Assembly (NCBI GenBank): GCA_001940985.1
Contig: MSHB01000022.1
Span: forward strand, 35,393-99,392
Source of the DNA: Mollicutes bacterium Phil14
Lineage (GTDB): Bacteria > Bacillota_I > Bacilli_A > ML615J-28 > CAG-698
Direction: 5' to 3'
Length of the DNA: 64,000 nt
The notes below the pieces were generated by a model. It made no database searches. It saw only the letters and a program-made list of their open reading frames with translations, and had not been told where the DNA came from. Positions 4,327 through 58,955 of the stretch are shown piece after piece. Within the stretch, counting starts at the first letter, position 1. The number at the start of each line of letters is the position of its first letter. The position numbers were made by a program, and so were the translations under genes.

Positions 4327-7300
4327 TTACTTATCCCAACTTATATCTTCATCAGTTAATCCCCAATTTCCACCTGATGTTTTTTCATTAACAACTAAAG
4401 CAAATTCTCTAATACGATTTTTTGTTGAACCACTAATAAAGTGATACTTACCATCATATTTATTATTTAAATCTAAATCATGAAGTTTATAAGAATCGCT
4501 ATTCCATCCATATGTTCCTTTAGAACCCGTCGCAAGATATATATCATATTCATATCTTCTTCCATTAATCAAAGTACCATTACTTTCACCTTTATATTTT
4601 GGAGTAATAGCCGTAAAACCATAGCATCCACTATAATTACGTCCAAACGAATACTGATATTTTGTTGCATCAATAGGATAATAAAACATTGACATTTGAT
4701 TATTCAAACCAGTAATATATTTTGTTATGCCTTCTTTATCAAGTTCACTTGCTTCATATGGATATATAATATGATTAGGATCATTTGGATCAATCGTAAC
4801 AGAATAATCAGCTAAATCACCTTGCAATTGATAATTTTTAATGGTAATAACTACTACTTGATTCTTGATTGGAGAACTAGGATCACTGCCCAATACAATA
4901 TTACCATTAGCAAAACGATAATAAATAGTAAATCTAATAGTTAAATTATATAATATATCGCTAGCAGTAATAAAATAATAAACTGTAGATTCTCCATCTT
5001 CAGAAACAATTTTATAAAGAATAACTGTATCTTTCTCTTCATCGTTACCAATAAAATCACCTTTCAATTCAGTTGACCAATTATTAGTATCACTACCATC
5101 CCAATTACTTCCAGTATATCTATATATACTAGAACCAATAGGATTCGTAAATGAAGGACTATAGTCATCTAAACTAATATTAGTAACTTTTCCATCAATT
5201 CTAAAATACCTAACATTATCATTATCAGCACCATCATAATCAATACCACCATAGTAAGTACGTGCATCATAGAGAGTATTGCTTATTTTATTTCCTAACA
5301 TATCTACTTCATATATATTAGGATATACTAAGGTAGTATCACTATCAAGTTGAAAATCTATATCTTCTAAATAAGCACTTTTACCAAGTAATTTATCTAT
5401 TACAATACTTAGCATTTCTTTTTCTTCACCATCACGAACCAAAATAAATTTATAACCTTTTGACCCTGGCTCTAATAATGAAGTAATATTAACAGAATAA
5501 TATGTTCCTATGTTCAAATAAATCTTAGATTTCATCTCTTCTTCATCAAAAACAATTTCATCAAGCAACATTTTAATTTGTCCATTTAATACTTCTCTGT
5601 CAATTTCAAATCCAAAATCAATATCAAATGTTGTTAGTAAATCCTCACGATAAACTATAAATGTAGTACCATATTGAATGTTATTATTTTTATAGACTAC
5701 TATGTTATCTGGTTCACGTTCAACAATTCTATGAACAATAGTATTAATACTACCTACTTCATTTTCAATTACATATGTCATTACATATTCTCTATTACCA
5801 TTAGTATATGTATAATACACACTTGTTTTAATTAATTTTGAAAATTCAGAAACATATATCCTTTCGATTTCAGTATCATCTATCTTTATTACGTAACTAT
5901 CTACATTATTTAAATATGATATCTCTTCTAGATTATTTATAGTTTCAATAGTTAAATCAATGCTGTTAGTCAAACCATATTTAACTTTAGAAAACATATA
6001 TCCAAATTGAATGTAAGTAATAAAATCTGTATCTTTTTCTTCAAGAAATTCTAAAATATTACCACTTATATCATAACTAAAAGTGTTATAAAAAACATTA
6101 GTAATATTATAATATTGAGATTTTTCTTTTGTTATAAATATAGAATAATCTTCTATTATATTATCATAGTAACGATATCTGATTTCATATTCCCCAGATA
6201 TTAACTTATTACTAAAGGAAATTGTGAAACCGAATTGCCTATTATTAAGTTTTACTATTTCTAATTTATAATAAGCACTATCTATCAAAGTATTTTCTCT
6301 GTATAATCCGATAACAGAAAGTTCATATTCACTTGCCAAAACACCATTATTATCAGTGAATAAACACTCTACTTTTCCATCTGGAGAAACATTATTCTTA
6401 ATAATATAACCATTTGTGATTGAATCCACTATGCTACTAGCACTATCAACAACAGCAGAAAAGTCTACTGATAACTCTTCACTTACACACTCAATAATAA
6501 TCTTATAATCTGTTACATATTTTTCAACTAGACTACTAACATTGCAAGCTATTTCAGAATATACACGTATTTTATCTTCAAATTCTAAACGAGAATTTTT
6601 AGTTAAAGTTCCAGATATACTTGCTTCATATATACCATCTAAAACATTACTACTTCTTAAGTTATAATAATTTCTAAAATCATGGTGTTCATTAGCAGTA
6701 ATACCATATTTAGCAATTACTGCATTTTCACTTAATACTGCACTTTTAACATAATAATTCAAATCAGTCTTATTATTAACAAAATTAAAAGCACTATTAG
6801 AAACAGTAAACGTGATTGTTGGTAAACCATACTCATCACTTCCAACAAGCCCTCCTCTTAAAATCGGAGAATTATTATTTTTATCATATAAAACTAAGTC
6901 ATATAAAGTAGAACCATTATCATCTTTTTGTTGGATCAAAGACTTATCACTATAACTAATTTGAAACATTGATTTATAATCTAATAACATTTCCTCAACG
7001 TTTAAACCACTATCTATTAAATCTTTAGAACTTACATTAGACAAATCAATATATTTTATTTCATCCTTCTCATTTAATTTATACAAATCATCAATTTTAA
7101 GATTTCCTGGTAATACATCACCAGCATCTCGACCTTTGGTTGTTGCTAAAACATACATGCCATTTGGTTTATAATTAAGTGATGTTTCATTTTTAAATCT
7201 ATCTGCTAATACATCATTACTAGCTGCATATATATAATTAGCTTGTTCTGAATCCATCAAAGGAAAACTATCACTGAATATATATGTTTTACTAGTATCA

Positions 7301-10300
7301 CTCTTATCATCGGTTACTATTTCAATTTGATATTGACTAATTGTAGAACTACTACTATTAGAACCAATACTTATATTATTTTGTAATAAACTAGCCACAT
7401 TACTAGGATTAGTTACAGTTGCTCTATTACTGCTATAATTTAAGTTAGATACACTAGTATTACCTGATACAACTACATTTCCATTAATAGTAGTATTTAG
7501 ACTAATAGTTTTATTATCTGAACTTTGTTTTTTTACAGTCCTTTGAACAGTTTCAGTTGCATAATTTGAAGTGTAATTGTTACCATTTATATTTTCGTTG
7601 TATGGTGCATATCTTCTTGTACTTGTAGTTATCTCTTCATATTCAAGTGAATCTAACGTAACTGAAGTAATTCTATACGTGTAGTTATTTCCCCAGAAAC
7701 TTCTTGTAATTGTAATAGATTTTATATCACTATCTGTTAAAGCATTTACTAATTCACTTGTAGTAGTACTTCCTGTAGTATAACCAACAACTAATGCTTG
7801 TGTTGTATCATTACTTCTTGCAGAATAATACGTATCTTCTTTTCCTGTTACTTTTAATCTATAAAATATATAAGCTCCATATGAAGAACCATCCACTCTA
7901 CCAATCATATCAACTTTAGAATCCATATTTAAAATATTCACAAAGTTATTTGATTGCATTACACCACTATTACCTCTTTGTAAACGTCCAAATATTCCTC
8001 CAAAACCACGTCTTGCATTAGGATATAATGACAAACTAACTGATTGGCTTGGAAAAATAAATGTGTTTTCATCTTTATAGATATAACTTGTATCACTTGA
8101 ATTATTCATATAATTGCTATTTGTGATATCTTTTAACACGGTATATGTAAAATTACTATAATTACTGTATTTAGCTGCTTTTACTTTTCCATAATGGATA
8201 GCAGTATCAATATTACAATATGTAATAGTAAGGTTACTTGTGTCTGCACTACCTAATACATATGTAGCTCCTACAATTCCACCAGCAACATCAGTTGAAA
8301 CAATAACTCCATGATTTAACATTCTAGTCATTATACATAATCCATATGATATTACTCCACCACTACAAGCAAAAATTCCTGGTCTACGACCTTGAGAAGT
8401 TCCACTGCCGTTGTTTTGGCCACTAGTAACACGAGTTCCATCTAAATTACCTATCTTATTTGAGATTGCGGTAATATTTCCAAAATTCAATCCATTTGAC
8501 AATTTACAATTAGCTATTCTATCGCCATTACCAACTGTGCACCAAGAAAATTTCTTTTGACCATTATTACTAGAATCAATTGATGCAGTTCCCGCGGTTA
8601 ATTCAACTCCCAAAGCAACAGCTAATATTCCACCACTTCTAACATATTGATTAGCTTTTCCTGATATATTACCATTGTTTGAAGAATCAACTATTTGCGC
8701 AGGCTCTACAACTTCATCACTATAACCAGCTAAAATTGTTGCACTAGTATCGGCCATTGCACTAACAACACCACCAAGTGCAAGTCCACCATTATATGCA
8801 AAAACTAATCCACCATATAAACAATTTGGTGTATCACCACCAGCTACATAAGTAGTACCACTACTTGAATTAATATATGTGATATCACCTGAATTAGCAC
8901 AATCTTGTATAAAGTTATAATTAAAAGTAACTATTCCTCCAACGAACGTATTGCACGTACCAATAATAGTTGCCCCATTACCATCATCAGAAGTTATATC
9001 AGCTCTATTCATAGAATTAGTGATTGAACCAACATTTAAATTAAATAATCCTGCTACATAAAGATTATTAGAATTAATAGTTGCCCTGAAACTAGTACTT
9101 GTTTGTGATGTTCCACTAACACCACTAATAGATGTATTCCCACTAATATTACTAGTTATAATCTTGCCTTCATTAATACAATTTATGGCTTTGTAAGTTT
9201 TATTATTTAAACTTGGTAAAATCCAAGATATCCCTGATATATATATATCTTTATTATTGCAAATTCCATTAACTATAATGTTACCACACATTGATACGTT
9301 TTTATAATCAACTTTATTAGCTAAAGTAATGCCTGCTACTTTCATTTCCCCATTGACGTTATTTTCGCCACCATCAATTGTAATATTACCATTGTTTTGA
9401 CAATACAACAATTCACATTCTTTATCATTAACAGACATAAAAAATGATGAGATATTAATACTTTCCACACTTTCATTAAAAAATGTAGAATCATATGTAT
9501 AAGAAGCTTCATTATAAGCTCTTGATAAAATAATACCATTACCATTATCTAATATTGTTGAACTATAATATATATTTCTGTTGTTATTATAACTATTATA
9601 GTTTTCTATTTCAAAACCAGCATTATTAATCATATAAGAAAAGCTAACTTTACTAATATCTGATGTATTTACTCCAATACCAGCTAAATAGTTTTTAGTA
9701 CTTGCGTTGTATTTACTAACAATAATACCATTATTTTCAAATCTACCGCTAATTAAATCACGATTATTTTTTGATATCTTAATTCCATTATTACTTTTTC
9801 CAAACACGCCACCAACATAAATATTAGCCGAAGCACTATTATCTATGGCTCCATTTATGCTACCATCATTTGTTAAGTAAAAATATTCATTGCTAGTTTC
9901 ACTATTATTATTCATATTACCAATAATGCCACCAGCGCAAATAACTACTTCATTTTCAGTAATGACATTGTTAATTGTTTTTATATTAGCATTGTTATAT
10001 GCATATTCAACTCTTAACCCCTTTTCACTACTTCCACCTATTATTCCACCATAATAATATTCTAAAGATGTATTATAATCTGTATAATTGTGCGTAGCAC
10101 TACCATCAATAGCACCATTAAGATTACAAACATAACTAATGTTACCACTTCCGTAGCCAACTATTCCTCCTATACAAGTTTTTCCTAAACCAGAATTACT
10201 AAAATCAAAATAATTAGTATTCTCATTAACTCTATTAGTAATATTTTTAATATTTCCAGAACTCAAATATGCACTAACTATACCAGCATATATCACTTTT

Positions 10301-11976
10301 CCATAATCACTATTATCACCAACTAAAGAAATAGTTGAGTCTATAAAATTAATATTTTTAATTGTTCCCTTGTTTATACCTACTAATCCATAATACACTT
10401 CTTTTTCTGTATAGTGAGAAGTAGTAATATTTAAATTCAATATACACTTATTATTATTGGTATTTGAATCTAAAGAAAAATCATCATCTCCACCTTTTAA
10501 AACTCCTTTAAATTCCGTTTTAGGAGTAGGATAATTAACATTTTTCATATCTATGTTATTATTTAAAACATATGTATGTTCATTAAATTGCTTTCCATAT
10601 GTTTTGCTTTTTAAAGATAAAAGTTTTGAAAATGTAATTAAATCAATATCTTTCTTTATCAAGTAACAATTATTACTTTCATCATATTCTAATCCAAAAA
10701 TTTGAGGCAAACTATCGCTTGCATAGAAATGCCATATTCTCTCATCATTTATTCCCTTTGAACTTAAGCTTACACTATTAATGTTTATATTTTCACCAGT
10801 AGTTATTTTTTCACTACTATATGCGCTTATTCCCAAAACATCAAGATTATCAGTACTAATCAAATCATCGTTATAGCAAACCCCACTAATCTCCCCACTG
10901 TTTTCGCAGACAATAGGATAACTTTTAAATAAATAACTTGAACCACTACTTACTACCCTTTGACTAATGTAATAGGAATTATAAATCTTACCTGTTTTGT
11001 TATTTTTATTTACTAAACCACTAGCATAAAATGTTTGTGTTTGTACTGCTCCTAATTGCAAATTCCAAATAATACCTGAATCATCCAAAGATACACCTGA
11101 ACTAATTTTAGTGCGTTTATCTATAACTGCAGTATTATAAACTAATCCATTATTTTCTCCAACCAAAATTGATGTATTAGTTAATCCATCAGGAATATCT
11201 AATAATTCAAAAATAGGATTTTCAATTATTAAATTGCAAATTATTCCACTTTCACCAACACTTGCAAACATTGAATAATAGTTATTAAGTGCAATATCTA
11301 CTTCTGTACTTTGATCATCTTGATTAAATCTGTAAATCATTGATATATAGTCATATCCAGCCAAATATAAATTCTTTATTTTAAAACCATTACCATCAAA
11401 ACTTCCCGTGAATGGATAATAGTTTCTAGTTTTTTCTTCATCAGGAGTAATAAAATCAATTCCTAATGGAATAAATTGTTTTGACTTCATTTTCGAATAA
11501 TCAATATCATTTATTAAACAATAATTAAAACTTAAAATTGTTTTTATTGTTTTTAAATTTGGATAAATATTAGCTGTTGCTTTATTTTTCCAATTATAAC
11601 AAGCATCAACTGATAGATAGTATAACTCTTCAGGAGTTGATATCGTTACTCGTTTGTCTAAAACAAACTCATTTATTTCATCACTCATTTTTTCATCTCT
11701 AACTGAAGATGATAAAGATGAATCATTCATATACTTCTCAATTATATTATGAATACTATTGTAATCTACCATCTTTTCACTACTAGTAGATTCACTATTA
11801 ATTAAAGCATTAAAAAAAGAAAAATCATTACTAAATTTACTATCAGCAGATACTTTTATGCTATTACCTTTATCAATGAATACACATAAAAATATAAAAA
11901 CAATGATGATAAAAGTTAACAATAATCCTAAACTTTTCTTTGAAATATTTTTAAAATTCATATTAGCACCTACCAA
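4327..11976 (-). CDS. Giant (2549 aa) N-terminally anchored or secreted surface protein. It is rich in Ser/Thr/Asn/Gly and has many G-G-(I/V)-(V/I)-G-type repeats. Putative beta-helical adhesin or matrix protein.
   Basis: Uninterrupted 7.65-kb ORF with an N-terminal hydrophobic signal or anchor (LGLLLTFIIIVFIFLCVF). It has dozens of motifs such as VAGGIVG, CIGGIVGYGSG, YYGGIIGGSS, CAGGIIGN and YVGGVFG. There is no LPxTG motif and no C-terminal TM. Its start overlaps the stop of the upstream TasA-like gene by 7 nt, indicating co-transcription. Confidence 0.8.
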   Translation of the reverse strand: MVGANMNFKNISKKSLGLLLTFIIIVFIFLCVFIDKGNSIKVSADSKFSNDFSFFNALINSESTSSEKMVDYNSIHNIIEKYMNDSSLSSSVRDEKMSDEINEFVLDKRVTISTPEELYYLSVDACYNWKNKATANIYPNLKTIKTILSFNYCLINDIDYSKMKSKQFIPLGIDFITPDEEKTRNYYPFTGSFDGNGFKIKNLYLAGYDYISMIYRFNQDDQSTEVDIALNNYYSMFASVGESGIICNLIIENPIFELLDIPDGLTNTSILVGENNGLVYNTAVIDKRTKISSGVSLDDSGIIWNLQLGAVQTQTFYASGLVNKNNKTGKIYNSYYISQRVVSSGSSYLFKSYPIVCENSGEISGVCYNDDLISTDNLDVLGISAYSSEKITTGENININSVSLSSKGINDERIWHFYASDSLPQIFGLEYDESNNCYLIKKDIDLITFSKLLSLKSKTYGKQFNEHTYVLNNNIDMKNVNYPTPKTEFKGVLKGGDDDFSLDSNTNNNKCILNLNITTSHYTEKEVYYGLVGINKGTIKNINFIDSTISLVGDNSDYGKVIYAGIVSAYLSSGNIKNITNRVNENTNYFDFSNSGLGKTCIGGIVGYGSGNISYVCNLNGAIDGSATHNYTDYNTSLEYYYGGIIGGSSEKGLRVEYAYNNANIKTINNVITENEVVICAGGIIGNMNNNSETSNEYFYLTNDGSINGAIDNSASANIYVGGVFGKSNNGIKISKNNRDLISGRFENNGIIVSKYNASTKNYLAGIGVNTSDISKVSFSYMINNAGFEIENYNSYNNNRNIYYSSTILDNGNGIILSRAYNEASYTYDSTFFNESVESINISSFFMSVNDKECELLYCQNNGNITIDGGENNVNGEMKVAGITLANKVDYKNVSMCGNIIVNGICNNKDIYISGISWILPSLNNKTYKAINCINEGKIITSNISGNTSISGVSGTSQTSTSFRATINSNNLYVAGLFNLNVGSITNSMNRADITSDDGNGATIIGTCNTFVGGIVTFNYNFIQDCANSGDITYINSSSGTTYVAGGDTPNCLYGGLVFAYNGGLALGGVVSAMADTSATILAGYSDEVVEPAQIVDSSNNGNISGKANQYVRSGGILAVALGVELTAGTASIDSSNNGQKKFSWCTVGNGDRIANCKLSNGLNFGNITAISNKIGNLDGTRVTSGQNNGSGTSQGRRPGIFACSGGVISYGLCIMTRMLNHGVIVSTDVAGGIVGATYVLGSADTSNLTITYCNIDTAIHYGKVKAAKYSNYSNFTYTVLKDITNSNYMNNSSDTSYIYKDENTFIFPSQSVSLSLYPNARRGFGGIFGRLQRGNSGVMQSNNFVNILNMDSKVDMIGRVDGSSYGAYIFYRLKVTGKEDTYYSARSNDTTQALVVGYTTGSTTTSELVNALTDSDIKSITITRSFWGNNYTYRITSVTLDSLEYEEITTSTRRYAPYNENINGNNYTSNYATETVQRTVKKQSSDNKTISLNTTINGNVVVSGNTSVSNLNYSSNRATVTNPSNVASLLQNNISIGSNSSSSTISQYQIEIVTDDKSDTSKTYIFSDSFPLMDSEQANYIYAASNDVLADRFKNETSLNYKPNGMYVLATTKGRDAGDVLPGNLKIDDLYKLNEKDEIKYIDLSNVSSKDLIDSGLNVEEMLLDYKSMFQISYSDKSLIQQKDDNGSTLYDLVLYDKNNNSPILRGGLVGSDEYGLPTITFTVSNSAFNFVNNKTDLNYYVKSAVLSENAVIAKYGITANEHHDFRNYYNLRSSNVLDGIYEASISGTLTKNSRLEFEDKIRVYSEIACNVSSLVEKYVTDYKIIIECVSEELSVDFSAVVDSASSIVDSITNGYIIKNNVSPDGKVECLFTDNNGVLASEYELSVIGLYRENTLIDSAYYKLEIVKLNNRQFGFTISFSNKLISGEYEIRYRYYDNIIEDYSIFITKEKSQYYNITNVFYNTFSYDISGNILEFLEEKDTDFITYIQFGYMFSKVKYGLTNSIDLTIETINNLEEISYLNNVDSYVIKIDDTEIERIYVSEFSKLIKTSVYYTYTNGNREYVMTYVIENEVGSINTIVHRIVEREPDNIVVYKNNNIQYGTTFIVYREDLLTTFDIDFGFEIDREVLNGQIKMLLDEIVFDEEEMKSKIYLNIGTYYSVNITSLLEPGSKGYKFILVRDGEEKEMLSIVIDKLLGKSAYLEDIDFQLDSDTTLVYPNIYEVDMLGNKISNTLYDARTYYGGIDYDGADNDNVRYFRIDGKVTNISLDDYSPSFTNPIGSSIYRYTGSNWDGSDTNNWSTELKGDFIGNDEEKDTVILYKIVSEDGESTVYYFITASDILYNLTIRFTIYYRFANGNIVLGSDPSSPIKNQVVVITIKNYQLQGDLADYSVTIDPNDPNHIIYPYEASELDKEGITKYITGLNNQMSMFYYPIDATKYQYSFGRNYSGCYGFTAITPKYKGESNGTLINGRRYEYDIYLATGSKGTYGWNSDSYKLHDLDLNNKYDGKYHFISGSTKNRIREFALVVNEKTSGGNWGLTDEDISWDK

Positions 11977-12680: not shown

Positions 12681-12767
12681 TCCTTTCTAAAAACATAAAT
12701 GGGTATTGAAAAAAGCCAATACCCAACCAAACTCTTTAATTAAATAATTGTTAAATAGTATTGAGTA

Positions 12768-13268
12768 TCATTCATCCTTTTGATGTGTTTTTAACAATTT
12801 GTATAATGAATTAAACAAAATCACTAGTACAACAATTATTGCTATTGACAATATAACGAAAGGATTTCTAATAAAATTTATTATAAATCCTAATATAGGA
12901 ATTGAAAAAGCATATATACCTTTTACTTGGCTAGCCTTTATTGGGGCATCATTAGCACTATTTTCATCTATACCTTTAGTTATTATTATATCTTTTTCTT
13001 TATCATAACTAATAACTCGATGAGTAACTGCCTTTCCATCTTCTCTTTCATAAGTTATAATAGTATCATTTTTTATTACGTCATAAACATCACTTTCAGA
13101 AATCTTTTTATAATACATAAGCGAACCTGTATAAATACGTGGTTCCATACTACCTGAAAGTACAATTTTTGCGCGATAATTACATATGTATAATCCTAAA
13201 GAAAATACTATTATAACTGCAAAAAGTCCTATTAATATATATTCAACAATATTTATTACTTTTTTCAT
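12768..13268 (-). CDS. sipW: Signal peptidase I, SipW (ER/archaeal) type.
   Basis: 166 aa. N-terminal TM, catalytic Ser box VLSGSMEP (near-identical to the Bacillus subtilis SipW box), a His box (THRVIS) and a C-terminal TM anchor. Confidence 0.8.
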   Translation of the reverse strand: MKKVINIVEYILIGLFAVIIVFSLGLYICNYRAKIVLSGSMEPRIYTGSLMYYKKISESDVYDVIKNDTIITYEREDGKAVTHRVISYDKEKDIIITKGIDENSANDAPIKASQVKGIYAFSIPILGFIINFIRNPFVILSIAIIVVLVILFNSLYKLLKTHQKDE

Positions 13269-13278
13269 TTTTACTTAT

Positions 13279-13881
13279 CTATTTTGCAAGCCCTGTTGTA
13301 AAATCAATATTTGCCATATTTTCCCATAAAACATATTCTGCTTGTTTTCCTTCAACTACAATAGTAATTGTATATGATTTCCCAGAATAATCATTTCCTA
13401 CTTTGCTTCCATCAAAAGTCATATTTACATTAAAATTTAAAACATCACCAACAGAAGGAACTGTAGCAGCACTAATATTAGCACTATCATCAGTTAATGA
13501 AGTAGGTTTTCCTTTATAATACCAGTAATCACCATCATTTACCCAATCAGAATTTTCATCAAAAGTTATTTCAACTATATCAGTTATTAAATCTGTTTTA
13601 TCTTTTTCAGTAACAGTTATTTTCACTCTTACGTTTGTAGCTACAGTTGATTTATTAGTAATAGTAATAGCATCAGCATTAAAAAGAGGTTGACCAGGTA
13701 CTACTATACTATCACTATTAATATTAAACTGACATTCGTAATTAACATCACCCATAACAAAGTTAATGTTTGAAGTCTTTGTGTCTGTTAACCATGCTAG
13801 AGTTGTTGCTACAAGACCAGCAAGCAAAACAACAATAGCACCACTTAAAAGTATAATTTTCTTTTTTAAATTCTTTTTCAT
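13279..13881 (-). CDS. TasA/camelysin-like secreted protein (SipW-cognate signal peptide).
   Basis: 200 aa. N-terminus ...LLAGLVATTLAWLTDTK. The C-terminal strand TIVVEGKQAEYVLWEN resembles the TasA C-terminal FSFEATQWNG. Confidence 0.6.
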   Translation of the reverse strand: MKKNLKKKIILLSGAIVVLLAGLVATTLAWLTDTKTSNINFVMGDVNYECQFNINSDSIVVPGQPLFNADAITITNKSTVATNVRVKITVTEKDKTDLITDIVEITFDENSDWVNDGDYWYYKGKPTSLTDDSANISAATVPSVGDVLNFNVNMTFDGSKVGNDYSGKSYTITIVVEGKQAEYVLWENMANIDFTTGLAK

Positions 13882-13892
13882 ATTTTTTCCTC

Positions 13893-14501
13893 CTAAGAAA
13901 TATCTATGGCAAAACCTAATTCATTCCATTCAACATAATCTTTTTGTTTTGCTTGAAAAGCTATTTTTATTATTAATTTTACATTTCTGTTTCCCATATT
14001 ACCATAGTTGTCACCATTAACACTTAAACTTTCTAGTACCGTGATACTTGTGCTTTCAGAACCCTTTATTACACTACCACTAATACTATCGCCATCAATA
14101 ATTCCACCATAATACCAACATCCTTTAAAATAAACCCAATCATCACCAATACTAGCTTTTATTTGTTGATTATTGGTATCATCAAATCCATTCCACTTCT
14201 CATTATCAATTGGACTATTTGCATCAGTAACAAATTGATAAAAAAGTTGAAACCTTATTTCAGAATCCACACTACTATGATTTGTTAGTATATATGGGTC
14301 ATTAATCAATGGTTTTTCAGGAACAATATAATCTTGTTCACATAAATTACCAACCAAATCATAACGAACTTCTCCACTAACAAAAACAATAGAGCTACTT
14401 CTTCTTAAAGAAATAAGCCATGCATATGAAGATGTGGCAAGCGTTATAGCTAAAATGAAAAGTGCTATTATGCTAATCAAACTTTTAGCATTTCTTTTCA
14501 T
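13893..14501 (-). CDS. TasA/camelysin-like secreted protein. It is the first gene downstream of c-di-GMP riboswitch copy A.
   Basis: The ORF track gives 13893..14534, but the first 11 codons would lie inside the riboswitch aptamer. An internal ATG at 14501-14499 is preceded by GGAGGA (MKRNAKSLISII...). N-terminus ...LAITLATSSYAWLISLRR. C-terminal IKIAFQAKQKDYVEWN. Confidence 0.6.
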   Translation of the reverse strand: MKRNAKSLISIIALFILAITLATSSYAWLISLRRSSSIVFVSGEVRYDLVGNLCEQDYIVPEKPLINDPYILTNHSSVDSEIRFQLFYQFVTDANSPIDNEKWNGFDDTNNQQIKASIGDDWVYFKGCWYYGGIIDGDSISGSVIKGSESTSITVLESLSVNGDNYGNMGNRNVKLIIKIAFQAKQKDYVEWNELGFAIDIS

Positions 14502-14502
14502 A

Positions 14503-14600
14503 CAATCCTCCGTTTTCTGGCGACTGGCTGTCATACACTAATTAGCTTCAGACCCTATAGTTTTGCGTCATCACTTTTCAGTGATTTTGCCTTTTTCTTT
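14503..14600 (-). promoter_or_regulatory. c-di-GMP-I (GEMM) riboswitch, copy A.
   Basis: Minus-strand RNA AAGGCAAAAUCACUGAAAAGUGAUGACGCAAAACUAUAGGGUCUGAAGC...GACAGCCAGUCG. It has GGCAAA, a perfect 6-bp hairpin capped by a GAAA tetraloop, then GACGCAAAaCUAUAGGG (receptor-like). This matches the Vc2 pattern GGCAAACCAUUCGAAAGAGUGGGACGCAAAGCC. About 75% identical to copy B at 23141-23215. Confidence 0.8.
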
Positions 14601-15242
14601 TTTTATATCCTCAAGTATTTTTTTCCTGATTTTTTCTCTTTCTGCTTCAATAAATTTTTGTTTTTCTTCATCATTTTTCTTATTTTGACTAGCGATTTTT
14701 TCCTCTTTAACCGCTATAAACATTTTTCCTATTTCAATGATTAAAAGAAAGAAAAACAATAACATTAAAATTAAAAATATTAAACTTCTGTGATTTGCAA
14801 TTAAACCACCAATTTTAAACAGTGTTAAAACCTTAACAACTTTTCCCACATAATTTTCCTTAGTAACAAACTCTGTATCAAAAGTACTATTATTAACACC
14901 TTTCATAATAAACGAACCATCTAAATTAACATCAACAATTCTATGAACTATATATATCTTATTGCTTTTTGAATAATAAATAATATCATCACCAATTGTT
15001 AATTTTTCAAATGGCACTTCTTTTGAAAGAATGAAATCACCTTCATTTATTACAGGTTCCATTGAATCAGTTGGTACAACCGAATATATATAACCAAATA
15101 TTTTTGTAGGTTTGTTGTTTTTATAAGCATTAATTCCAACGATTATTATGGCAATAGCCAAAACAAACAATAAACAAGTAAATATCCCTAAGCATTTGCT
15201 GATGATACTTTTTACTTTAGGTTCTTTCATACTATTCACCAA
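14571..15242 (-). CDS. SipW-type signal peptidase I paralog with a C-terminal TM and a charged tail.
   Basis: 223 aa. N-terminal TM, VVPTDSMEPVINEGDFIL Ser box, IVHRIVDV His box, then a second TM (LIFLILMLLFFFLLII) and a K/E-rich tail. The last about 10 codons overlap the riboswitch A aptamer. Confidence 0.7.
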   Translation of the reverse strand: MVNSMKEPKVKSIISKCLGIFTCLLFVLAIAIIIVGINAYKNNKPTKIFGYIYSVVPTDSMEPVINEGDFILSKEVPFEKLTIGDDIIYYSKSNKIYIVHRIVDVNLDGSFIMKGVNNSTFDTEFVTKENYVGKVVKVLTLFKIGGLIANHRSLIFLILMLLFFFLLIIEIGKMFIAVKEEKIASQNKKNDEEKQKFIEAEREKIRKKILEDIKKEKGKITEK

Positions 15243-16017
15243 TACTATTATCTATTATCAAATTTTTAATAACTAATCTTTGATTAGAATAAAACCTGCC
15301 ATCAAAAGATATATCACTAGGAATAATATCTTGATATATACTAGGAAAAATGGGTTCTGGTTGAAACTTTACTGTAAAATATAGCACTACATTTTTGCCA
15401 GCTTCTAATTTAAAATCTTTTAGTAAATAATAATTAGTTAAATCCTCGCCTTCACTATTAATAGTGTTAAAGTATGTAAATTCAGGACTAATCATACTAT
15501 TAGTTGTAATCTTTTTCCATCCCCATTCCTCAATTTTTTCATCGCTTGGAACAGTGATTAATTCATTTTCTTTTTCTTTTATTTCTGTTTTATACGGAAC
15601 TTCAACAAGCAAATCGCATCTATAACTATATGAATATTGTATCTTTTCATAGGCATTTTGATAATCACTTGTAAAGACTCCATCATTAAATCTTTCAGAA
15701 TGCAAATCAGAAAAATAAACATTTAAATTACAAACATCTTTACTTGTATTAGAAAGTATCAAAAGAAATATATTCATCTCTCCTGGCATCGCTTTTTCAG
15801 CAGTATAAGTATCAGATTGAATAATATTGTTACCTATAACTTGTGAGAACTGATATTCATAACCGTTTTCTCCAACACTAGCCACAAAGCTAGCACTATT
15901 ACTTTTAACAGTTACAAACCAAGCATAACCAACACTAACAAAAGCTATTAAAGATAATATGCATGAAAACAAGGCCATTAAAAACATTTTATTTTTAAAC
16001 ATTTTTCTCATCACCAT
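15232..16017 (-). CDS. TasA/camelysin-like secreted protein (SipW-cognate N-terminus).
   Basis: 261 aa. N-terminus ...LIAFVSVGYAWFVTVKSN. Overlaps neighbours at both ends. Confidence 0.55.
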   Translation of the reverse strand: MVMRKMFKNKMFLMALFSCILSLIAFVSVGYAWFVTVKSNSASFVASVGENGYEYQFSQVIGNNIIQSDTYTAEKAMPGEMNIFLLILSNTSKDVCNLNVYFSDLHSERFNDGVFTSDYQNAYEKIQYSYSYRCDLLVEVPYKTEIKEKENELITVPSDEKIEEWGWKKITTNSMISPEFTYFNTINSEGEDLTNYYLLKDFKLEAGKNVVLYFTVKFQPEPIFPSIYQDIIPSDISFDGRFYSNQRLVIKNLIIDNSIGE

Positions 16018-18010
16018 TTTGGTCCTTATTCATTAGTTTAATTAATTTATCTTTATTTTTGCTTTTTTCTTCGTTAGCTTTTTCAATTTCTTTTTGTTTC
16101 AATTCTTTTCTAACTTTTTCTGTTTGTGAGCGAGATTTTTCTTTTTCTTTCAACTTAAATTCTTTAATTTTTTTATCTTGAATTTCTTTTTGTTTTAATT
16201 TCTTTTCTTTTTTAGCCTTTAAGATTTTATCTAAATTAGCTTTTTCCAAAGCAATAATATCATTAACTTTCTTTGAATGAGCAGCTTGCATTTCTTTAAT
16301 TTTTTGTTTAGTTCTTTCTTTTTCATTTTTACTAATTTCACGCATCTTCTCTTTCAAAGTATCATTTATTAGTTTAAGACTATTCTTTGAGTCTTCCTTA
16401 GCCTTAACAACCTTTATTTTTTTACCATCTAAAGTTACCACACTAGAAGTAGCTTTAGCCTTAGCTTTTTTGTATATATCTATTTCTTTATCTAAATTAT
16501 TCTTAACTTCAAAAATAGCATCTTCATTGGTTTTTCCTTCTAAACTTTTAATAAGTTTAGTACTGGCTTTAGCCATATCTTTATTAAGACGTTTCTCAAG
16601 TCGAATTGCATTGTTATAATCAACTTCTTTTACTTCTCTAATTATCTTAGCAATTTGAGCTTTCTTTTTCGTTTCATCAAACTCTTCTTTAGGATCAACA
16701 TCCTTAACAAGTCTTGTAAATATATCTTCGTCTTCTAATTCAAAATATGATTGATATAAAGCATTAGATATATTATTCACCATGCGAATTGCTTGCTTTA
16801 ATGCAACTTCATCACTTGATGCTGTTTTTTTAAATTCATCTATGTTTTTCTTAAACATATTTTTATATTGTTTTAAATAATATTCATTTATACTATTATC
16901 TTCCTTAGAAAGTACTTCTGGATTAGTGATGATATCATCTTCATTTTTCTTAATCTGTTTAGCACTTTTCTTAATTGTCTTTTCATCACTCTTACCATCA
17001 AACTTTGTCTTTCTAACTGATTCATTAGCCTCACTAGAAAGATAGGCAAGCATTGCTGTTTGATTAAATCCATGTTCTATTTTTTTATCTATTTTTTTGT
17101 TCTTTTCTTTTACTATCAAATCATATGCCAACTTATTATATTTATCTAAAAACAACCACAACATATAGCAATTTTTAAAATCAGGATTTTTCATAATAAT
17201 ATTTGTTTGCATAATTGGAGGATTAACTTTAGGGGCATTAATCAATTTCTTGTATAACTCGGAATTTTTATATGCCATTATCATACGATTTAATTTTTCA
17301 ACACGCTTTAGTAAATATAAATTATTTTTTTCGTTTTGACTATTAACAGTTTTCTTGATTACCACATCAACATTTATATTTACCGAAGCATTGTTAATGT
17401 TAAAGTCAGACGATATATTAACATGATTTTTGTTTGATGATAAAACATTATCTTTAATAACATTGTATCTGTTATTTACAAAAACAAACAATCTATCTAT
17501 CAATGTTTTAATAAATCTATTTTCATAAATTGAGAATTCTTGTTCCGCATAACTTGTTAAAATCTTTTTGGGAATTACGTAATTTCCATCTCTTACTTCT
17601 TTTACAAAATGTGTATGTGAAGCAAGATGTCTTACTGATTCAGAATTAATTTTCTTAGCCTTTTCAACAGGAACTATTTCTTGCTCATATCTGATTCCTG
17701 TTTTAGGAGTGTTTGCAATCTTATCAATACTTGGAAAATATGATTCTAATGTTTTTATCCATTCTTCATCAAAAACTTTTGTTTCAATAATATCTTTTTG
17801 ATATATAACTCTATCACCAGATAAATATGAATCATAGAAAAGTTTGGCAAAAGCACTATCCACTTCTAATTCATCTAAATTAGTAGAAACTGTCTCAAAA
17901 TATTCATCTATATCCAAATCATCTGAATTTAAATCTAAAGGAGTTGCCTCACTTTCTTCTTTTTCTTTTTCGTTAACAAAGATATCGTCCATAGCAACCT
18001 CCTTAAACAA
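15995..18010 (-). CDS. 671-aa acidic, coiled-coil protein. Partner of the adjacent McrB-family NTPase. Function unknown.
   Basis: Acidic N-terminus (DLNSDDLDIDEYFE), a central globular region and an extremely K/E-rich predicted coiled-coil C-terminal half. No signal peptide. It sits 6 nt downstream of the AAA_5 gene. Confidence 0.6.
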   Translation of the reverse strand: MFKEVAMDDIFVNEKEKEESEATPLDLNSDDLDIDEYFETVSTNLDELEVDSAFAKLFYDSYLSGDRVIYQKDIIETKVFDEEWIKTLESYFPSIDKIANTPKTGIRYEQEIVPVEKAKKINSESVRHLASHTHFVKEVRDGNYVIPKKILTSYAEQEFSIYENRFIKTLIDRLFVFVNNRYNVIKDNVLSSNKNHVNISSDFNINNASVNINVDVVIKKTVNSQNEKNNLYLLKRVEKLNRMIMAYKNSELYKKLINAPKVNPPIMQTNIIMKNPDFKNCYMLWLFLDKYNKLAYDLIVKEKNKKIDKKIEHGFNQTAMLAYLSSEANESVRKTKFDGKSDEKTIKKSAKQIKKNEDDIITNPEVLSKEDNSINEYYLKQYKNMFKKNIDEFKKTASSDEVALKQAIRMVNNISNALYQSYFELEDEDIFTRLVKDVDPKEEFDETKKKAQIAKIIREVKEVDYNNAIRLEKRLNKDMAKASTKLIKSLEGKTNEDAIFEVKNNLDKEIDIYKKAKAKATSSVVTLDGKKIKVVKAKEDSKNSLKLINDTLKEKMREISKNEKERTKQKIKEMQAAHSKKVNDIIALEKANLDKILKAKKEKKLKQKEIQDKKIKEFKLKEKEKSRSQTEKVRKELKQKEIEKANEEKSKNKDKLIKLMNKDQNGDEKNV

Positions 18011-18015
18011 AACAA

Positions 18016-19572
18016 TTAGCTATTTTTAATAAAATTTTGAATACAATTAATACTTTCTAAGCAAGTATTTTTACCAAACAATTTGTCAAGTAAAGTAATT
18101 AATTGATTTAATTCTTCATGTAAGAAACTTAAATTTAAAGTTTCAAATTTTCTTATAACTTTATATGCCAAAAAGTAATCTAAACCTTGAACATCAGTTC
18201 CACCACACGCTACATAAACTGGAACAAATGTATTAATTTGTTTCATAATACGATTACCAAAAGTTATCTTAAACTCTTTAGTAATAAATTCATCTAGTTT
18301 TTGAATCTTTTCCACTAATTTCGCATCAAGTGGATATGCTTTTATTCCTTCTTGAAAAAGGTGCTCCATATATTCATAATTCATATTAACATTTTCTGTG
18401 TATGGTGCATCAATTAATTCAGCACGGGCATCCATTTCAATAGTTGTTGCACGATCATAAACTTTATCAGTAATTGTAAATGTTGAATCATCACGGTTAG
18501 CTGTACCAACAAACCAAACATTTTGAGGAATCAATAATTTTCCATCAACTAGTTTCTTAGGATCATTTGCTAAAGTATCTGGAACCAAATCTATTTTCCA
18601 TTCATTCTTATCTGGCATTTCCATTATTGATAAAAACTCAGCAAAATAATACTCAATTCTAGCTAAATTCATTTCATCTAAAATAATGAAATTCATATCA
18701 TCGCGATAGCTAGTTTCATAAACAGCTTTCAAAAAATCAGTTTCATTAAACTTTTTAGTGAATTCATTCAAATATCCAATTAACTCAGTTCTATCTCTCC
18801 ATGAAGGTTGAACAGAACAAATTGCCGCATCGTTTTTAAAAAACTTTCCCATCGCATACGGTAAAGATGTTTTACCAGTACCAGATATACCTTGTAAAAT
18901 CAAAATTTTGCTTGTGGCAAGTCCAGCGAAATATGCTCTAATAACTTTTTTATCATAATACAAATGTAATTGTGACGCTGAAAAATTAATAAATCTATTA
19001 ACTAATTCTTGTAAATTAAGCATATCATCAGGTCCCATCATAATTGATGTAATCTTTGTTTTGTATTCTTCATCAACAGCACTAAGTTTAATAAATCTTA
19101 AATCGCTAACAACTTTTTTGTCTTTAGACATTTCATTAGTAAGATTTTCTTCATCACTTTTTTCAGAATAATTATTCACACCACCAAGACCTAAATTAGA
19201 AACCTTTAATGCTAAAATCTTATTCTTTTCATCAATCAATTCTGCAGTCTTAGTATTTAATTGTGATACTTCTTCTAATAAGTCATCTTTCTCTATTTCT
19301 CTTCTTACAAATCTAACATATCTTCTAAGAATTTGGAAAATTCTCAAACCTAAGAAAATAAAGAAAGCAACTATTATAAGCATTGTAATAATTTCACAAA
19401 TCCAATCAAGAGCATTAAACTCATTACTGCCATTGATTAAATCTTCAAAATAACTAACAATATCTTTAAAAAATGCATGAGAAAATGCCTCCCATAATCT
19501 TACAAAGAACATCTTGAAATTATAGAAAAATGTTCTTAAAAAACCTATGAAATACCTAGCGAAGTTTACCAT
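18016..19572 (-). CDS. Membrane-anchored McrB-family (AAA_5) GTPase/ATPase.
   Basis: 518 aa. N-terminal TM (ITMLIIVAFFIFLGLRIF). Walker A ILQGISGTGKTS. McrB-type Walker B with NxxD region FIILDEMNLARIEYYFAEFL (compare McrB IDEINRANxxxxFGEL). Sensor motif VWFVGTANRDDSTFTITDKVYDRATTIEM (compare McrB IIGTMNTADRS). Confidence 0.7.
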   Translation of the reverse strand: MVNFARYFIGFLRTFFYNFKMFFVRLWEAFSHAFFKDIVSYFEDLINGSNEFNALDWICEIITMLIIVAFFIFLGLRIFQILRRYVRFVRREIEKDDLLEEVSQLNTKTAELIDEKNKILALKVSNLGLGGVNNYSEKSDEENLTNEMSKDKKVVSDLRFIKLSAVDEEYKTKITSIMMGPDDMLNLQELVNRFINFSASQLHLYYDKKVIRAYFAGLATSKILILQGISGTGKTSLPYAMGKFFKNDAAICSVQPSWRDRTELIGYLNEFTKKFNETDFLKAVYETSYRDDMNFIILDEMNLARIEYYFAEFLSIMEMPDKNEWKIDLVPDTLANDPKKLVDGKLLIPQNVWFVGTANRDDSTFTITDKVYDRATTIEMDARAELIDAPYTENVNMNYEYMEHLFQEGIKAYPLDAKLVEKIQKLDEFITKEFKITFGNRIMKQINTFVPVYVACGGTDVQGLDYFLAYKVIRKFETLNLSFLHEELNQLITLLDKLFGKNTCLESINCIQNFIKNS

Positions 19573-19599: not shown

Positions 19600-20391
19600 T
19601 TACTCTTTTATTTCTTCATTTTTTTCTTTTTTTTCCAATTCTGCTAGAAGTTCAGCACGCATCTTTTCTTTTTCATTTTCTAATTCAGCTTTAATGCGAG
19701 CAAGTTCATCTTCATGTTCCTTCATCATTGTTTCTTTATTCTTATGATTTTTAATTCTTAAAAAATTCATTACAAGCATTATTGCTTCAAAAACAAAGAA
19801 CAATGCCGTTGGCAATACTATACAAAGCAAGAATCCATTTGATGTTTGCAAGAACTTCATTGTATTGCCTGCACCAGTCCATTTACCAGTATAAACAGCT
19901 TTAATATCTTCATATGATATAGTTTCAAATTTAGCACTACTTAAGTTATCAGGATCATATTTGTATGCAGGGTTCATAGCATATTTATCACCTTGAGTTC
20001 TTATATATTGCTTACCATCACTACCTGTAGAAAAATCTACAATTCTGTGGGTATTAAGAATTGTTCTTCCTATCTCATCAGAATAATAGGCAAATGTAAC
20101 TATATCTCCAATTTCTAATTTACTAACTATTTTTTCTCTATTTTTTTCAGTTATAACTTTAACAAAGATTAAATCTTTTGGAGTAAATGAATCTTCTTCT
20201 TCTCCATCCATTGACGAAGTTTGAACTGTTAAATATCCTTTACCAAAAATACTTGGAATATCTAATTCAGTCTTCATTCCTAAATTACTAATTGAAAATA
20301 TTAATAATATTGCAACGAATAGATAAAACACACAATTCAATACAACACTAACAACCTCCCACCATTTTTTTTCTTTTTTCTCTTCTAACAT
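19600..20391 (-). CDS. Divergent SipW-type signal peptidase paralog with a C-terminal TM and coiled-coil tail.
   Basis: 263 aa. N-terminal TM, Ser box YLTVQTSSMDGEEED (the SM is retained but the usual EP is replaced by DG plus an acidic insert), His box NTHRIVDF, then a TM and a K/E-rich coiled coil. Confidence 0.6.
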   Translation of the reverse strand: MLEEKKEKKWWEVVSVVLNCVFYLFVAILLIFSISNLGMKTELDIPSIFGKGYLTVQTSSMDGEEEDSFTPKDLIFVKVITEKNREKIVSKLEIGDIVTFAYYSDEIGRTILNTHRIVDFSTGSDGKQYIRTQGDKYAMNPAYKYDPDNLSSAKFETISYEDIKAVYTGKWTGAGNTMKFLQTSNGFLLCIVLPTALFFVFEAIMLVMNFLRIKNHKNKETMMKEHEDELARIKAELENEKEKMRAELLAELEKKEKNEEIKE

Positions 20392-20419
20392 ATTGTCCTC
20401 TTTCTAAAACGAAGTTTTA

Positions 20420-20454
20420 TGTATAACAGAGGCAATTAAATGCTTCTGTTATAC
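20420..20454 (-). promoter_or_regulatory. Intra-operon stem-loop (13-bp stem) between the TasA-like genes and the downstream SipW paralog.
   Basis: Minus-strand GUAUAACAGAAGC-AUUUAAUU-GCCUCUGUUAUAC with one mismatch. No U-tract follows, so it is a candidate partial terminator, attenuator or processing site. Confidence 0.35.
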
Positions 20455-20478
20455 ATATTTAATTTTTAAAATATTTTA

Positions 20479-22401: not shown

Positions 22402-23080
22402 CAGAATCGATTGCTGAGAATTTCATTTGAATCTTAATCTGACCACCTAATATATCACTTGTTGTATCAGGATCTTGACCTTCTAGCCACATAAATACTG
22501 TATATTTTATTACTTGGTCAGGAAAGAAACCATAAATCTTATCACGCATTATCAATCTTTCATTAACAAATTCTAAACAATCAGGGATATCTTCATACTG
22601 TGCTTCTTTATCATCTTTTGCCATAAATAACATTTCTCGAGAGACACCATCAATTTCTGTAATCACCATAAACCTTATTGCTTTATCAACATTTTTCTTA
22701 ACAGAAGTTATTTGAACATAATAACGCAAATCCGTTGACTGACTACCAAAATTTTTAACATAGAAAGTATATGCCAAATATTTAAAATTTGGATCATTAT
22801 AACTTCCTTCTGCTTTCTTAGCTTCTTCAATATTTAGCATCGTGTATGTTATATCTCTAGCATCGTAAACCGCATCAGCTTGTATTAAAGAGCTAGGATT
22901 AATAAAATCTTTAGTCTGTGACATATATATTTGTTTTTCTTTTAAGTCAGGATCAATTGACATAACAAAATTACCAACATTAGATCCATAAAATGTTAAT
23001 ACTGCAATTATAACTAGTGCTATTCCAAAAACAGTTATTCCCATTTGAAGAAACTTTTTATTCTTAAAAAATGCATTCAT
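22382..23080 (-). CDS. Secreted or anchored protein of the same paralog family (shared C-terminal motif). It is the first gene downstream of riboswitch copy B.
   Basis: 232 aa. N-terminal TM. C-terminal YTVFMWLEGQDPDTTSDILGGQIKIQMKF aligns with the IWLEGWDxDC motif of the 300- and 329-aa paralogs. GAGGTGGTGAG ribosome-binding site. Confidence 0.5.
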   Translation of the reverse strand: MNAFFKNKKFLQMGITVFGIALVIIAVLTFYGSNVGNFVMSIDPDLKEKQIYMSQTKDFINPSSLIQADAVYDARDITYTMLNIEEAKKAEGSYNDPNFKYLAYTFYVKNFGSQSTDLRYYVQITSVKKNVDKAIRFMVITEIDGVSREMLFMAKDDKEAQYEDIPDCLEFVNERLIMRDKIYGFFPDQVIKYTVFMWLEGQDPDTTSDILGGQIKIQMKFSAIDSGEKDEK

Positions 23081-23087
23081 TATGTCT

Positions 23088-23217
23088 CACCACCTCACTT
23101 GAAACAAAAAAGCCAGAAATCTCCACAAAAAATTTGAGATAACTGGCTACCATTTCAGGCCCTATAGCTTTGCGTCACAACCTTTCGATTGCTTTGCCTT
23201 TAACATATACGCTTATT
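23088..23217 (-). promoter_or_regulatory. c-di-GMP-I (GEMM) riboswitch, copy B, with a terminator-type expression platform.
   Basis: Minus-strand aptamer AAAGGCAAAGCAAUCGAAAGGUUGUGACGCAAAGCUAUAGGGCCUGAAAUGGUAGCCAGUU. It contains GGCAAA, a hairpin with a GAAA loop and GACGCAAAGCUAUAGGG. Then comes the hairpin GCCAGUUAUCUC...GGAGAUUUCUGGC followed by UUUUUUGUUU. The terminator's 5' arm overlaps the aptamer's 3' end. Confidence 0.85.
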
Positions 23218-23243
23218 ATACTATGTTTTGGGCTATTTGTCAA
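23215..23243 (-). promoter_or_regulatory. Near-consensus sigma-A promoter (TTGACA, 17 nt, TATAAT) driving riboswitch B and its operon.
   Basis: Minus-strand TTGACAaatagcccaaaacatagTATAAT. The riboswitch GGCAAAG begins about 16 nt after the -10 element. Confidence 0.7.
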
Positions 23244-23280
23244 GAAACACTTACATATTCTCAACATATTTTTCCTACTT

Positions 23281-58704: not shown

Positions 58705-58955
58705 TTTCCTCCAAATAAAAAATCCTTAGAAAATTAATTCTAAGGACGAAATCTTCGCGGTACCACCTTAGTTCAAAATACAAATGTATTTTGCACCTCA
58801 ACTGTAAAATTAACGCTTTTACTTAAACGGACTCTATTAAAGCCACTCCAAGGGTGAATTCATAGGGTTTTTACTATAAGAAATTTCAGCTACATTCTTA
58901 CTCTCTGAAAATAAAAACTAATCTACTACTACTTCCTTATCACAGTATTATATAC
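58705..58955 (-). promoter_or_regulatory. T-box leader (tRNA-Phe-responsive riboswitch) upstream of pheST, with a terminator/antiterminator.
   Basis: The minus-strand leader contains an AG-box (CAGAGAG), a candidate specifier region with UUC (GAAAUUUCUUA) and the conserved T-box sequence AAGGUGGUACCGCG. A terminator hairpin CCUUAGAA-UUAAUU-UUCUAAGG plus UUUUUUAUUU follows. A promoter TTGATT...TATAAT lies at about 58960-58990. Confidence 0.85.

Follow-up and report, generated by a model that had tools for sequence, protein, structure and literature searches.

A conserved c-di-GMP-I riboswitch between two genes of a sipW operon in a Mollicutes bacterium, and how it may act

What does a riboswitch do when it lies in the middle of an operon, wedged between two genes and overlapped by the first of them? 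A 64,000-nucleotide stretch of the genome of Mollicutes bacterium Phil14 (contig MSHB01000022.1, positions 35,393 to 99,392; hereafter the window) raises this question. Here an aptamer of the class that senses cyclic dimeric guanosine monophosphate (c-di-GMP), which we call copy A, stands between sipW2, a gene for a SipW-type signal peptidase, and the gene for a secreted protein of 202 amino acids (aa). A sequence-only reading of the window had described the element as a GEMM-I riboswitch that might control translation. We provide evidence that copy A is real and conserved as a c-di-GMP-I element and almost certainly functional. We regard as settled its identity, conservation and position, its overlap with the upstream gene, the start codon of the downstream gene, and the lack of both a terminator and a conserved promoter.

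The aptamer at the sipW2 junction

The junction is built from the following features.

14571..15242, minus strand: sipW2, an open reading frame (ORF) of 223 aa for a SipW/archaeal-type signal peptidase I (TIGR02228)
14516..14601, minus strand: copy A, c-di-GMP-I (GEMM-I) aptamer, RF01051; core GGCAAA...GUCGCC at 14591-14519
14571..14591, minus strand: overlap of the sipW2 coding sequence with the aptamer core, GGC AAA AUC ACU GAA AAG UGA (GKITEK and stop)
14506..14511, minus strand: Shine-Dalgarno (SD) sequence GGAGGA of the 202-aa gene, 10 nt past the last aptamer pair (14522)
13893..14501, minus strand: 202-aa secreted-protein gene, directly behind copy A, with a SipW-substrate-like signal peptide (…ATSSYAW…)

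Copy A is a regular member of RF01051: its class is known, and its placement is uncommon. The Rfam cmscan match on the minus strand (14516-14601) scores 70.5 bits with an E value of 8.6e-12 against a gathering score of 35 bits, spans model positions 1-87 of 87, and makes RF01051 the best-scoring family of clan CL00126. The class assigned by the sequence-only reading is thereby borne out, and the sequence that it quoted is found in the window; the element it placed at 14503-14600 stands, with its bounds moved to those of the covariance model. Aligned to the Rfam consensus, helix P2 is AUCACU-GAAA-AGUGAU, capped by a GNRA (GAAA) tetraloop, and the second hairpin, P3, is GGGUCUGAAG...GUAUGACAGCC, with a tetraloop-receptor-like internal loop. 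The segments aGGCAAA, GACGCAAA and GUCGCC match the consensus and are invariant across all of the lineages considered below. By analogy with the Vc2 structures, the ligand contacts would be the G before GCAAA, the first A after GACGC and the C after the 3' strand of P3 (G20, A47 and C92 of Vc2), and copy A has the consensus nucleotide at each. The element is intercistronic, lies about 8.7 kb into the gene array, and fills the entire gap between sipW2 and the 202-aa gene.

Is this arrangement kept by selection? Among 5.8 billion sequences, the 202-aa protein has only seven homologue clusters (57-99% identity), all of 197-202 aa except one fragment, which comes from a frameshifted assembly. The homologue contigs, labelled L001 to L011, keep the same order of genes across the locus, and from them we drew a related set of seven loci in five lineages. 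Every one of the seven carries an RF01051 match at the junction of sipW2 and the next gene, at 70.8-74.5 bits. Between lineages the aptamer is 90-99% identical in nucleotide sequence, against 74-79% for sipW2 and 71-78% for the downstream gene, and in the alignment of the lineages its core varies only in the distal loop of P3 and at one base next to the tetraloop. Because the aptamer is so much better conserved than the coding sequences on either side (71-79%), these data are strong evidence that selection acts on the RNA itself. The related loci yielded no covariation for the aptamer, because P2 and the other paired regions do not vary.

A protein pattern for the 202-aa family and a DNA pattern for the copy A aptamer found no match in the GTDB species representatives or the JGI metagenomes, and the exact SipW protein of the window has no record in public assemblies. 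The only NCBI genome with the locus is L004 (GCA_021628625.1, JAJXSM010000002.1), which shows dozens of short ORFs and homopolymer-length differences from the window and looks like a frameshift-rich assembly. The broken locus explains why genome databases show next to nothing of the protein family.

The upstream gene scores 81.4 bits against TIGR02228 (cut-off 51.85; residues 20-168) and 63.6 bits against NF046067, the SipW-Bacillus equivalog model, below its cut-off of 190. By these scores sipW2 encodes a SipW-type enzyme that is not an orthologue of Bacillus subtilis SipW. Its true start is probably the ATG at 15230, giving 219 aa, because the homologues begin at the residue aligned with Met5. 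At its other end the gene runs into the aptamer, as the sequence-only reading had it: the stop UGA (14573-14571) lies within the 3' strand of the GAAA-capped first hairpin, and the last seven codons, stop included, are inside the core. The coding part of the aptamer thus comes to 21 nt of the core (from GGCAAA) or 31 nt of the Rfam model.

The overlap had been singled out as a notable feature, and while it is present in the window, it is not itself conserved. The window shares its UGA with L001, L005 and L006, and in these four sequences the C-terminal GKITEK/R encoded by sipW2 is translated aptamer. In one lineage (L007, L010 and L011) a 4-nt insertion shifts the frame and brings in a TAA 2 nt before GGGCAAA, and because sipW2 stops there ahead of the aptamer, the overlapped residues are dispensable for the peptidase. 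Across all five lineages no spacer intervenes: the stop comes at the earliest 2 nt before the core and at the latest 21 nt into it. The overlap is best read as an incidental by-product of compaction, the sipW2 frame running on to the first stop, which falls in the aptamer; what stays conserved is the abutment. Going by ribosome footprint sizes, a ribosome terminating on sipW2 would cover the first hairpin (P2) in every lineage.

The downstream start is equally clear. The homologues all align from MKRNAK at the ATG equivalent to that at 14501-14499, and gene callers give 197-202 aa; the preference of the sequence-only reading for this start over the one at 14534 is thus upheld. The AUG at 14534 belongs to the conserved aptamer motif UAUGACAGCC. 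Linker length alone puts it in frame in four sequences, and in L005 and L006 it is out of frame. GGAGG and the AUG are invariant in all lineages, and the linker from GUCGCC to GGAGG is 7-10 nt long and varies in both sequence and length. The gap between aptamer and ribosome-binding site, earlier put at about 20 nt, measures 10 nt from the last pair (14522) to the SD.

The product itself resembles little else. It has no Pfam or NCBIfam match and no sequence relative in the Protein Data Bank (PDB), and its predicted model is beta-rich (predicted local distance difference test score 68) with no significant fold match. We considered and set aside a TasA/CalY/camelysin-like fold: in a Foldseek search of the PDB, TasA (5of1) came at rank 17 with E 0.17 and a template-modelling score of 0.32. 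The signal-peptide type (…SSYAW…) and the sipW neighbourhood are what suggest that the 202-aa protein is a SipW substrate.

A candidate translational switch

If the aptamer is kept for its own sake, what does it control, and how? We infer read-through transcription, translational control and ON polarity: the leading reading, to which we give an even chance, is that copy A is a translational ON switch of the 202-aa gene on a read-through transcript. Translational control is the likeliest mode because there is no terminator and the last aptamer pair is 10 nt from the ribosome-binding site. Scans of the window, L001 and L007 flag no terminator-like site after copy A on the minus strand, in keeping with the earlier remark that none was obvious. 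A hidden terminator in the first 100 nt of the 202-aa gene was considered and rejected: a 7-bp AUGCUAA/UUAGCAU hairpin can be seen by eye and has no adjacent U-run, its arms are not kept in L005, L006, L007, L010 and L011, and the scans flag nothing there.

The proposed switch would work as follows. Copy A would be transcribed within a polycistronic RNA that starts at the head promoter and passes copy B, a second aptamer at the operon head. In the ligand-free RNA, the GGAGG and AUG region would be paired with the aptamer's C-rich 3' strand (GUAUGAC-AG-CC / CAGUCGCC); with c-di-GMP bound, that strand would be held in the aptamer and the start site would open. Unconstrained ensemble folding agrees with this picture in that the main partner of the SD and AUG is the 3' strand of the aptamer, through GUAUGAC-AG-CCA and UGG-AGG-GUCAUAU in L001, L005, L006, L010 and L011 and through CAGUC/GAUUG plus CC/GG in the window. 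Enforcing the aptamer raises the probability that the AUG is unpaired in six of six sequences, from 0.48 to 0.57 in the window and from 0.17 to 0.87 in L005. In register, 92.9% of the alignment cells of the masking helix are paired, a figure that drops to 13-50% on sliding the partner, and two one-sided changes in the window lineage keep their pairs as wobbles.

Polarity is suggested by the operon head, where the relevant features are these.

23135..23208, minus strand: copy B, c-di-GMP-I aptamer (RF01051, 62.6 bits)
23215..23243, minus strand: sigma-70-type promoter TTGACA-17-TATAAT ahead of copy B, a 12/12 match
23105..23148, minus strand: intrinsic terminator of copy B, AGCCAG-UUAUCUC...GAGAU-UU-CUGGCU-UUUUUU
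23281-24753 and 24774-27347, minus strand: two genes directly upstream of the operon, for GGDEF+EAL proteins of 490 and 857 aa

Copy B is predicted to be a textbook transcriptional ON switch, because the 5' arm of its terminator, AGCCAG, is also the aptamer 3' strand and the terminator is lost in folding when the aptamer is enforced. The same perfect promoter stands at the head of the operon in L001. An ON polarity for copy A would fit both copy B and the two upstream GGDEF-EAL genes, and the locus would then need c-di-GMP twice, for transcription past the head and for translation of the second set of subunits.

Which genes would such a switch reach? Directly behind the 202-aa gene lie three features of what we call the second module.

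13279..13881, minus strand: gene for a secreted paralogue of 200 aa, 11 nt past the end of the 202-aa gene (20.2 bits against TIGR04088, the model for SipW-dependent-type signal peptides; cut-off 19)
12768..13268, minus strand: sipW3, 166 aa (TIGR02228, 78.9 bits), which closes the module
12700..12725, minus strand: terminator-like hairpin from the terminator scan, after sipW3 and before the genes for a 236-aa and a 2549-aa protein

Copy A would control initiation on the 202-aa gene and possibly on the two genes that closely follow; a translational switch would act directly on the 202-aa gene only, and perhaps on its tightly spaced followers. The earlier proposal that it gates a distal half carrying the giant protein is doubtful, as the hairpin at 12725-12700 separates the 202-aa, 200-aa and sipW3 genes from those for the 236-aa and giant proteins. 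Every lineage keeps this hairpin; in L007 the scan flags it as a terminator, and in L001 and L005 its U-tract is weaker. Copy A is accordingly best regarded as leader to a second module, joined directly onto the middle block of genes described below.

Several results weigh against a translational ON switch and account for our reserve. Enforcing the aptamer barely shifts the accessibility of the SD and lowers it in L001, L005 and L006. The masking helix shows no two-sided covariation in the alignment, and it was derived from the same sequences. Of the 1024 sequences that a 5-nt spacer from GGAGG to AUG can take, all of which we enumerated, 236 for the window and 49-183 for the other lineages paired with the aptamer 3' strand as well as the natural spacer or better. 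Binding of the 30S subunit could instead be impeded by a stable aptamer so near the SD (10 nt). Ribosomes finishing sipW2 must unwind the first hairpin, which could disturb ligand sensing. Finally, the family is known from five lineages only.

The spacer control also leaves no ground for claiming a specially selected anti-SD/anti-AUG helix, which looked good by eye and in the register-shift control and is unexceptional among the 1024 spacers. Whatever the spacer, some half of the nucleotides from SD to AUG are on average paired with the C-rich aptamer strand, so masking of the SD is a generic result of proximity and composition, a workable mechanism though not a demonstrably selected one. The sequence-only suggestion of translational control is plausible.

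Transcript source and competing explanations

The rival that survives best concerns the transcript itself. Copy A might head its own RNA: a promoter inside the 3' end of sipW2 would drive the second module (aptamer, 202-aa and 200-aa genes, sipW3, terminator), and copy A would be an ordinary 5'-leader element that the upstream gene happens to overlap. We consider this possible, though tentative. The modular build of the locus speaks for it. In the window, module 1 comprises copy B, genes for proteins of 232, 329 and 300 aa, and sipW1; module 2 comprises copy A, the 202- and 200-aa genes, sipW3 and the terminator-like hairpin; and between them stands a middle block of genes for a 518-aa protein, a 671-aa DUF2357 protein and a 261-aa secreted protein, with sipW2 as its last member. 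The module thus occurs twice in the window, its second copy closing with the hairpin, and a unit of aptamer, small secreted proteins of the 'AYW/AW' type and sipW recurs in metagenome-assembled genomes (MAGs) of distant Bacillota, Bacilli and Mycoplasmatota.

The promoter itself is harder to find. A TATAAA at 14607-14602, 10 nt upstream of the core, had been proposed as a weak internal promoter and would suit a separate transcript. However, no -35 element lies upstream of it, and while it is kept in the window and L001, it is replaced by GATTCA or AATTCT in L005, L006, L007 and L010, that is, in three of the five lineages. Nor did the 250 nt upstream of copy A hold a sigma-A-like promoter at a consistent distance in six sequences, other sigma factors not having been tested. 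The transcription start would also need to lie within about 10 nt of the aptamer core. The TATAAA proposal is thus not supported.

Codon usage offers one further point in favor of a separate transcript. The last ~40 codons of sipW2 (about 14592-14710) show 35 synonymous differences among 260 same-amino-acid pairs where 74.9 are expected from the per-amino-acid rates in five neighboring genes, about half; for their lysine and glutamate codons the fraction of differing pairs is 0.08, compared with 0.18-0.42 in other tails rich in these residues. Other 30-codon windows, however, also reach 0/60 synonymous differences, and the pairs are non-independent and come from five lineages. The reduced variation is a weak signal, not clearly outside the scatter among such 30-codon segments, and does not amount to evidence for a promoter.

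From sipW1 (20391) to sipW3 (12768) the genes overlap or lie at most 11 nt apart, except at the junction filled by the aptamer. Read-through transcription is the likelier source of copy A RNA on these features, roughly twice as likely in our judgment as an internal promoter.

A second rival places the action of copy A at the level of the RNA. The ligand would alter endonucleolytic processing or stability at the junction of sipW2 and the 202-aa gene, or Rho-dependent termination within that gene, and so uncouple the amounts of structural protein from those of the upstream enzymes. It gains from the lack of an intrinsic terminator and from support for SD masking that is weak and non-specific. 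The tapA-sipW-tasA transcript of B. subtilis is reportedly processed by RNase Y, which we count as a point in its favor. SipW operons also yield transcripts of differing abundance, as with sipW-bsaA of Clostridium perfringens (PMC7395162). We nonetheless consider action at the RNA level unlikely, as no sequence feature here indicates a cleavage site or a rut site, and translational switches classically have the SD as close to the aptamer as the 10 nt seen here.

The translational reading has a variant in which the passing ribosome is part of the device. Ribosomes terminating on sipW2 would unwind the first hairpin, periodically strip c-di-GMP from an aptamer that binds it almost irreversibly, and so reset the switch; the second subunit set would then depend jointly on c-di-GMP and on the rate of upstream translation. 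We offer this translation-reset scheme as a rather improbable refinement.

Opposite polarity is the next possibility: a compact, ligand-bound aptamer would block docking of the 30S subunit, and c-di-GMP would repress the second module. The very short linker and the lack of any gain in SD accessibility in L001, L005 and L006 when the aptamer is enforced are consistent with such an OFF switch. Accessibility of the AUG, however, goes up in every lineage, copy B is built as an ON switch, and it would be odd for one operon to combine opposite polarities. Matrix and adhesin genes are usually induced by c-di-GMP, which also counts against repression, and we hold an OFF switch to be highly unlikely.

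That copy A is a relic of the fusion of two modules, without present function, might be read from its internal position, its coding overlap and the lack of a recognizable expression platform beyond the SD, but an aptamer 90-99% conserved amid coding DNA at 71-79%, with core positions invariant in five lineages and every copy scoring about 70 bits or more against the full model, makes this next to untenable.

Known systems, wider meaning and the rest of the locus

How does copy A compare with characterized systems? It is like the RF01051 riboswitches Vc2 of Vibrio cholerae, Cd1 of Clostridioides difficile and Bc2 of Bacillus thuringiensis in its full-length match, GAAA hairpin, receptor-like P3 and consensus G, A and C, and it shares with the class a link to surface, adhesion and matrix genes and GGDEF/EAL neighbors. 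c-di-GMP-I riboswitches are familiar as 5' leaders behind a promoter. Copy A, in contrast, lies between cistrons and lacks a terminator; the upstream ORF runs into it, and only 7-10 nt of linker lead to the SD.

Tandem c-di-GMP-I riboswitches, such as the triple-tandem Bc3-5 of B. thuringiensis, likewise place several aptamers for one ligand in series on one transcription unit. The head of our operon has one aptamer-terminator unit in the window (23060-23330) and two in tandem in L004 (860-1290) and L001 (1090-1470), which with the internal copy makes for two head units plus a third sensor in the latter two. That third sensor differs from the tandem arrays in lying kilobases downstream, between genes, and in probably acting on translation rather than termination. 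L004 is ~99% and L001 72% identical to the window, and the junction of the difference in units falls inside the repeated aptamer; the single unit of the window reflects either recombinational deletion or assembly collapse of the repeat. A GGDEF-EAL gene is likewise found upstream of the operon in L001, L003 and L004.

Another parallel in layout is the pyr operon of B. subtilis, which has three PyrR attenuators, in the leader and in the pyrR-pyrP and pyrP-pyrB regions, two of them intercistronic. There too one signal is sensed repeatedly, at the operon head and at internal intercistronic sites. The pyr attenuators, however, depend on a protein and use terminators, whereas here the RNA itself is predicted to be the sensor, and no terminator accompanies the internal site.

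SinR is a protein regulator of the B. subtilis tapA-sipW-tasA operon. Like that operon and sipW-bsaABCRSD of C. perfringens, the present locus encodes a dedicated SipW beside secreted substrates, which in those systems form polymers (PMC7395162). The C. perfringens system makes both a bicistronic sipW-bsaA mRNA and a polycistronic read-through mRNA, and its terminator after the subunit genes allows read-through into the distal genes, a further likeness (PMC7395162). These matrix operons differ in being run by protein regulators (BsaR/S), with no riboswitch described; 'riboswitch' and 'c-di-GMP' appear in the C. perfringens paper in the reference list only (PMC7395162). Here there are three sipW paralogues and a 2549-aa protein, and the substrates have no detectable sequence or fold similarity to TasA. 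Within the searchable library, a full-text literature search returned no paper with both 'c-di-GMP riboswitch' and sipW, and no use of 'intercistronic riboswitch', 'internal riboswitch' or similar terms.

If copy A works as proposed, the operon would read one messenger at two or three points: transcription would be switched once or twice at the head, and translation once more at the internal site. The response could be steep or staged, with the enzymes and first subunits made at lower c-di-GMP and the second subunit set made on a persisting signal. Copy A would also be a clear natural example of an intercistronic riboswitch traversed by upstream ribosomes, and would bear on how riboswitches cope with translation where RNA polymerase outruns the ribosomes.

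The association of aptamer and sipW extends well beyond the five lineages. Among six distant sipW loci (28-43% identity, from GTDB MAGs of Bacillota, Bacilli and Mycoplasmatota), five have a c-di-GMP-I or c-di-GMP-I-GGC aptamer located 1-2 kb upstream of the sipW gene, some scoring best as the GGC variant RF03167.

L012, 557-630: distant aptamer
L013, 722-797: distant aptamer
L014, 1034-1110: distant aptamer
L015, 1342-1423: distant aptamer
L016, 1078-1159: distant aptamer

In L012 and L016, whose ORFs were listed, two or three small secreted proteins with ...AYW or ...SFW signal peptides lie between aptamer and sipW. Because five of the six loci carry an aptamer of this clan ahead of 'AYW' proteins, the data suggest that c-di-GMP governs a widespread and so far undescribed regulon of SipW-dependent surface proteins among Bacillota and their relatives. 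Our literature search found nothing on a link between c-di-GMP riboswitches and SipW-substrate modules.

The remaining genes of the locus complete the picture. Its three SipW-type peptidases lie at 19600-20391 (sipW1), 14571-15242 (sipW2) and 12768-13268 (sipW3), and at least six small proteins have signal peptides ending in ...(Y/F/L)AW. Module 1 has a hairpin of its own, a perfect palindrome of 15-17 bp between the 300-aa gene and sipW1 (20418-20457; 4071-4103 in L001); it has no clear U-run on the coding strand, and it may end the module either as a partial terminator or as an element for RNA stability. In L007 the same gap (2689-2717) holds a promoter-like site with an 11/12 match and an extended -10. 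The middle block (15995-19572, minus strand) includes the 518-aa protein, which has an N-terminal hydrophobic segment, a GISGTGKT P-loop recognized by eye and no Pfam match, and the 671-aa DUF2357 protein, which has a long Lys/Glu-rich tail and stands in an operon otherwise of secreted proteins and signal peptidases. The 2549-aa protein (4327-11976, minus strand), which follows the 236-aa protein and the conserved hairpin, has an N-terminal signal- or anchor-like segment and no Pfam domain at E<=0.001; its size is kept at 2539-2560 aa in L001, L007 and L010. Elsewhere in the window, a T-box leader (RF00230) lies at 58739-58952 on the minus strand with a score of 104.8 bits.

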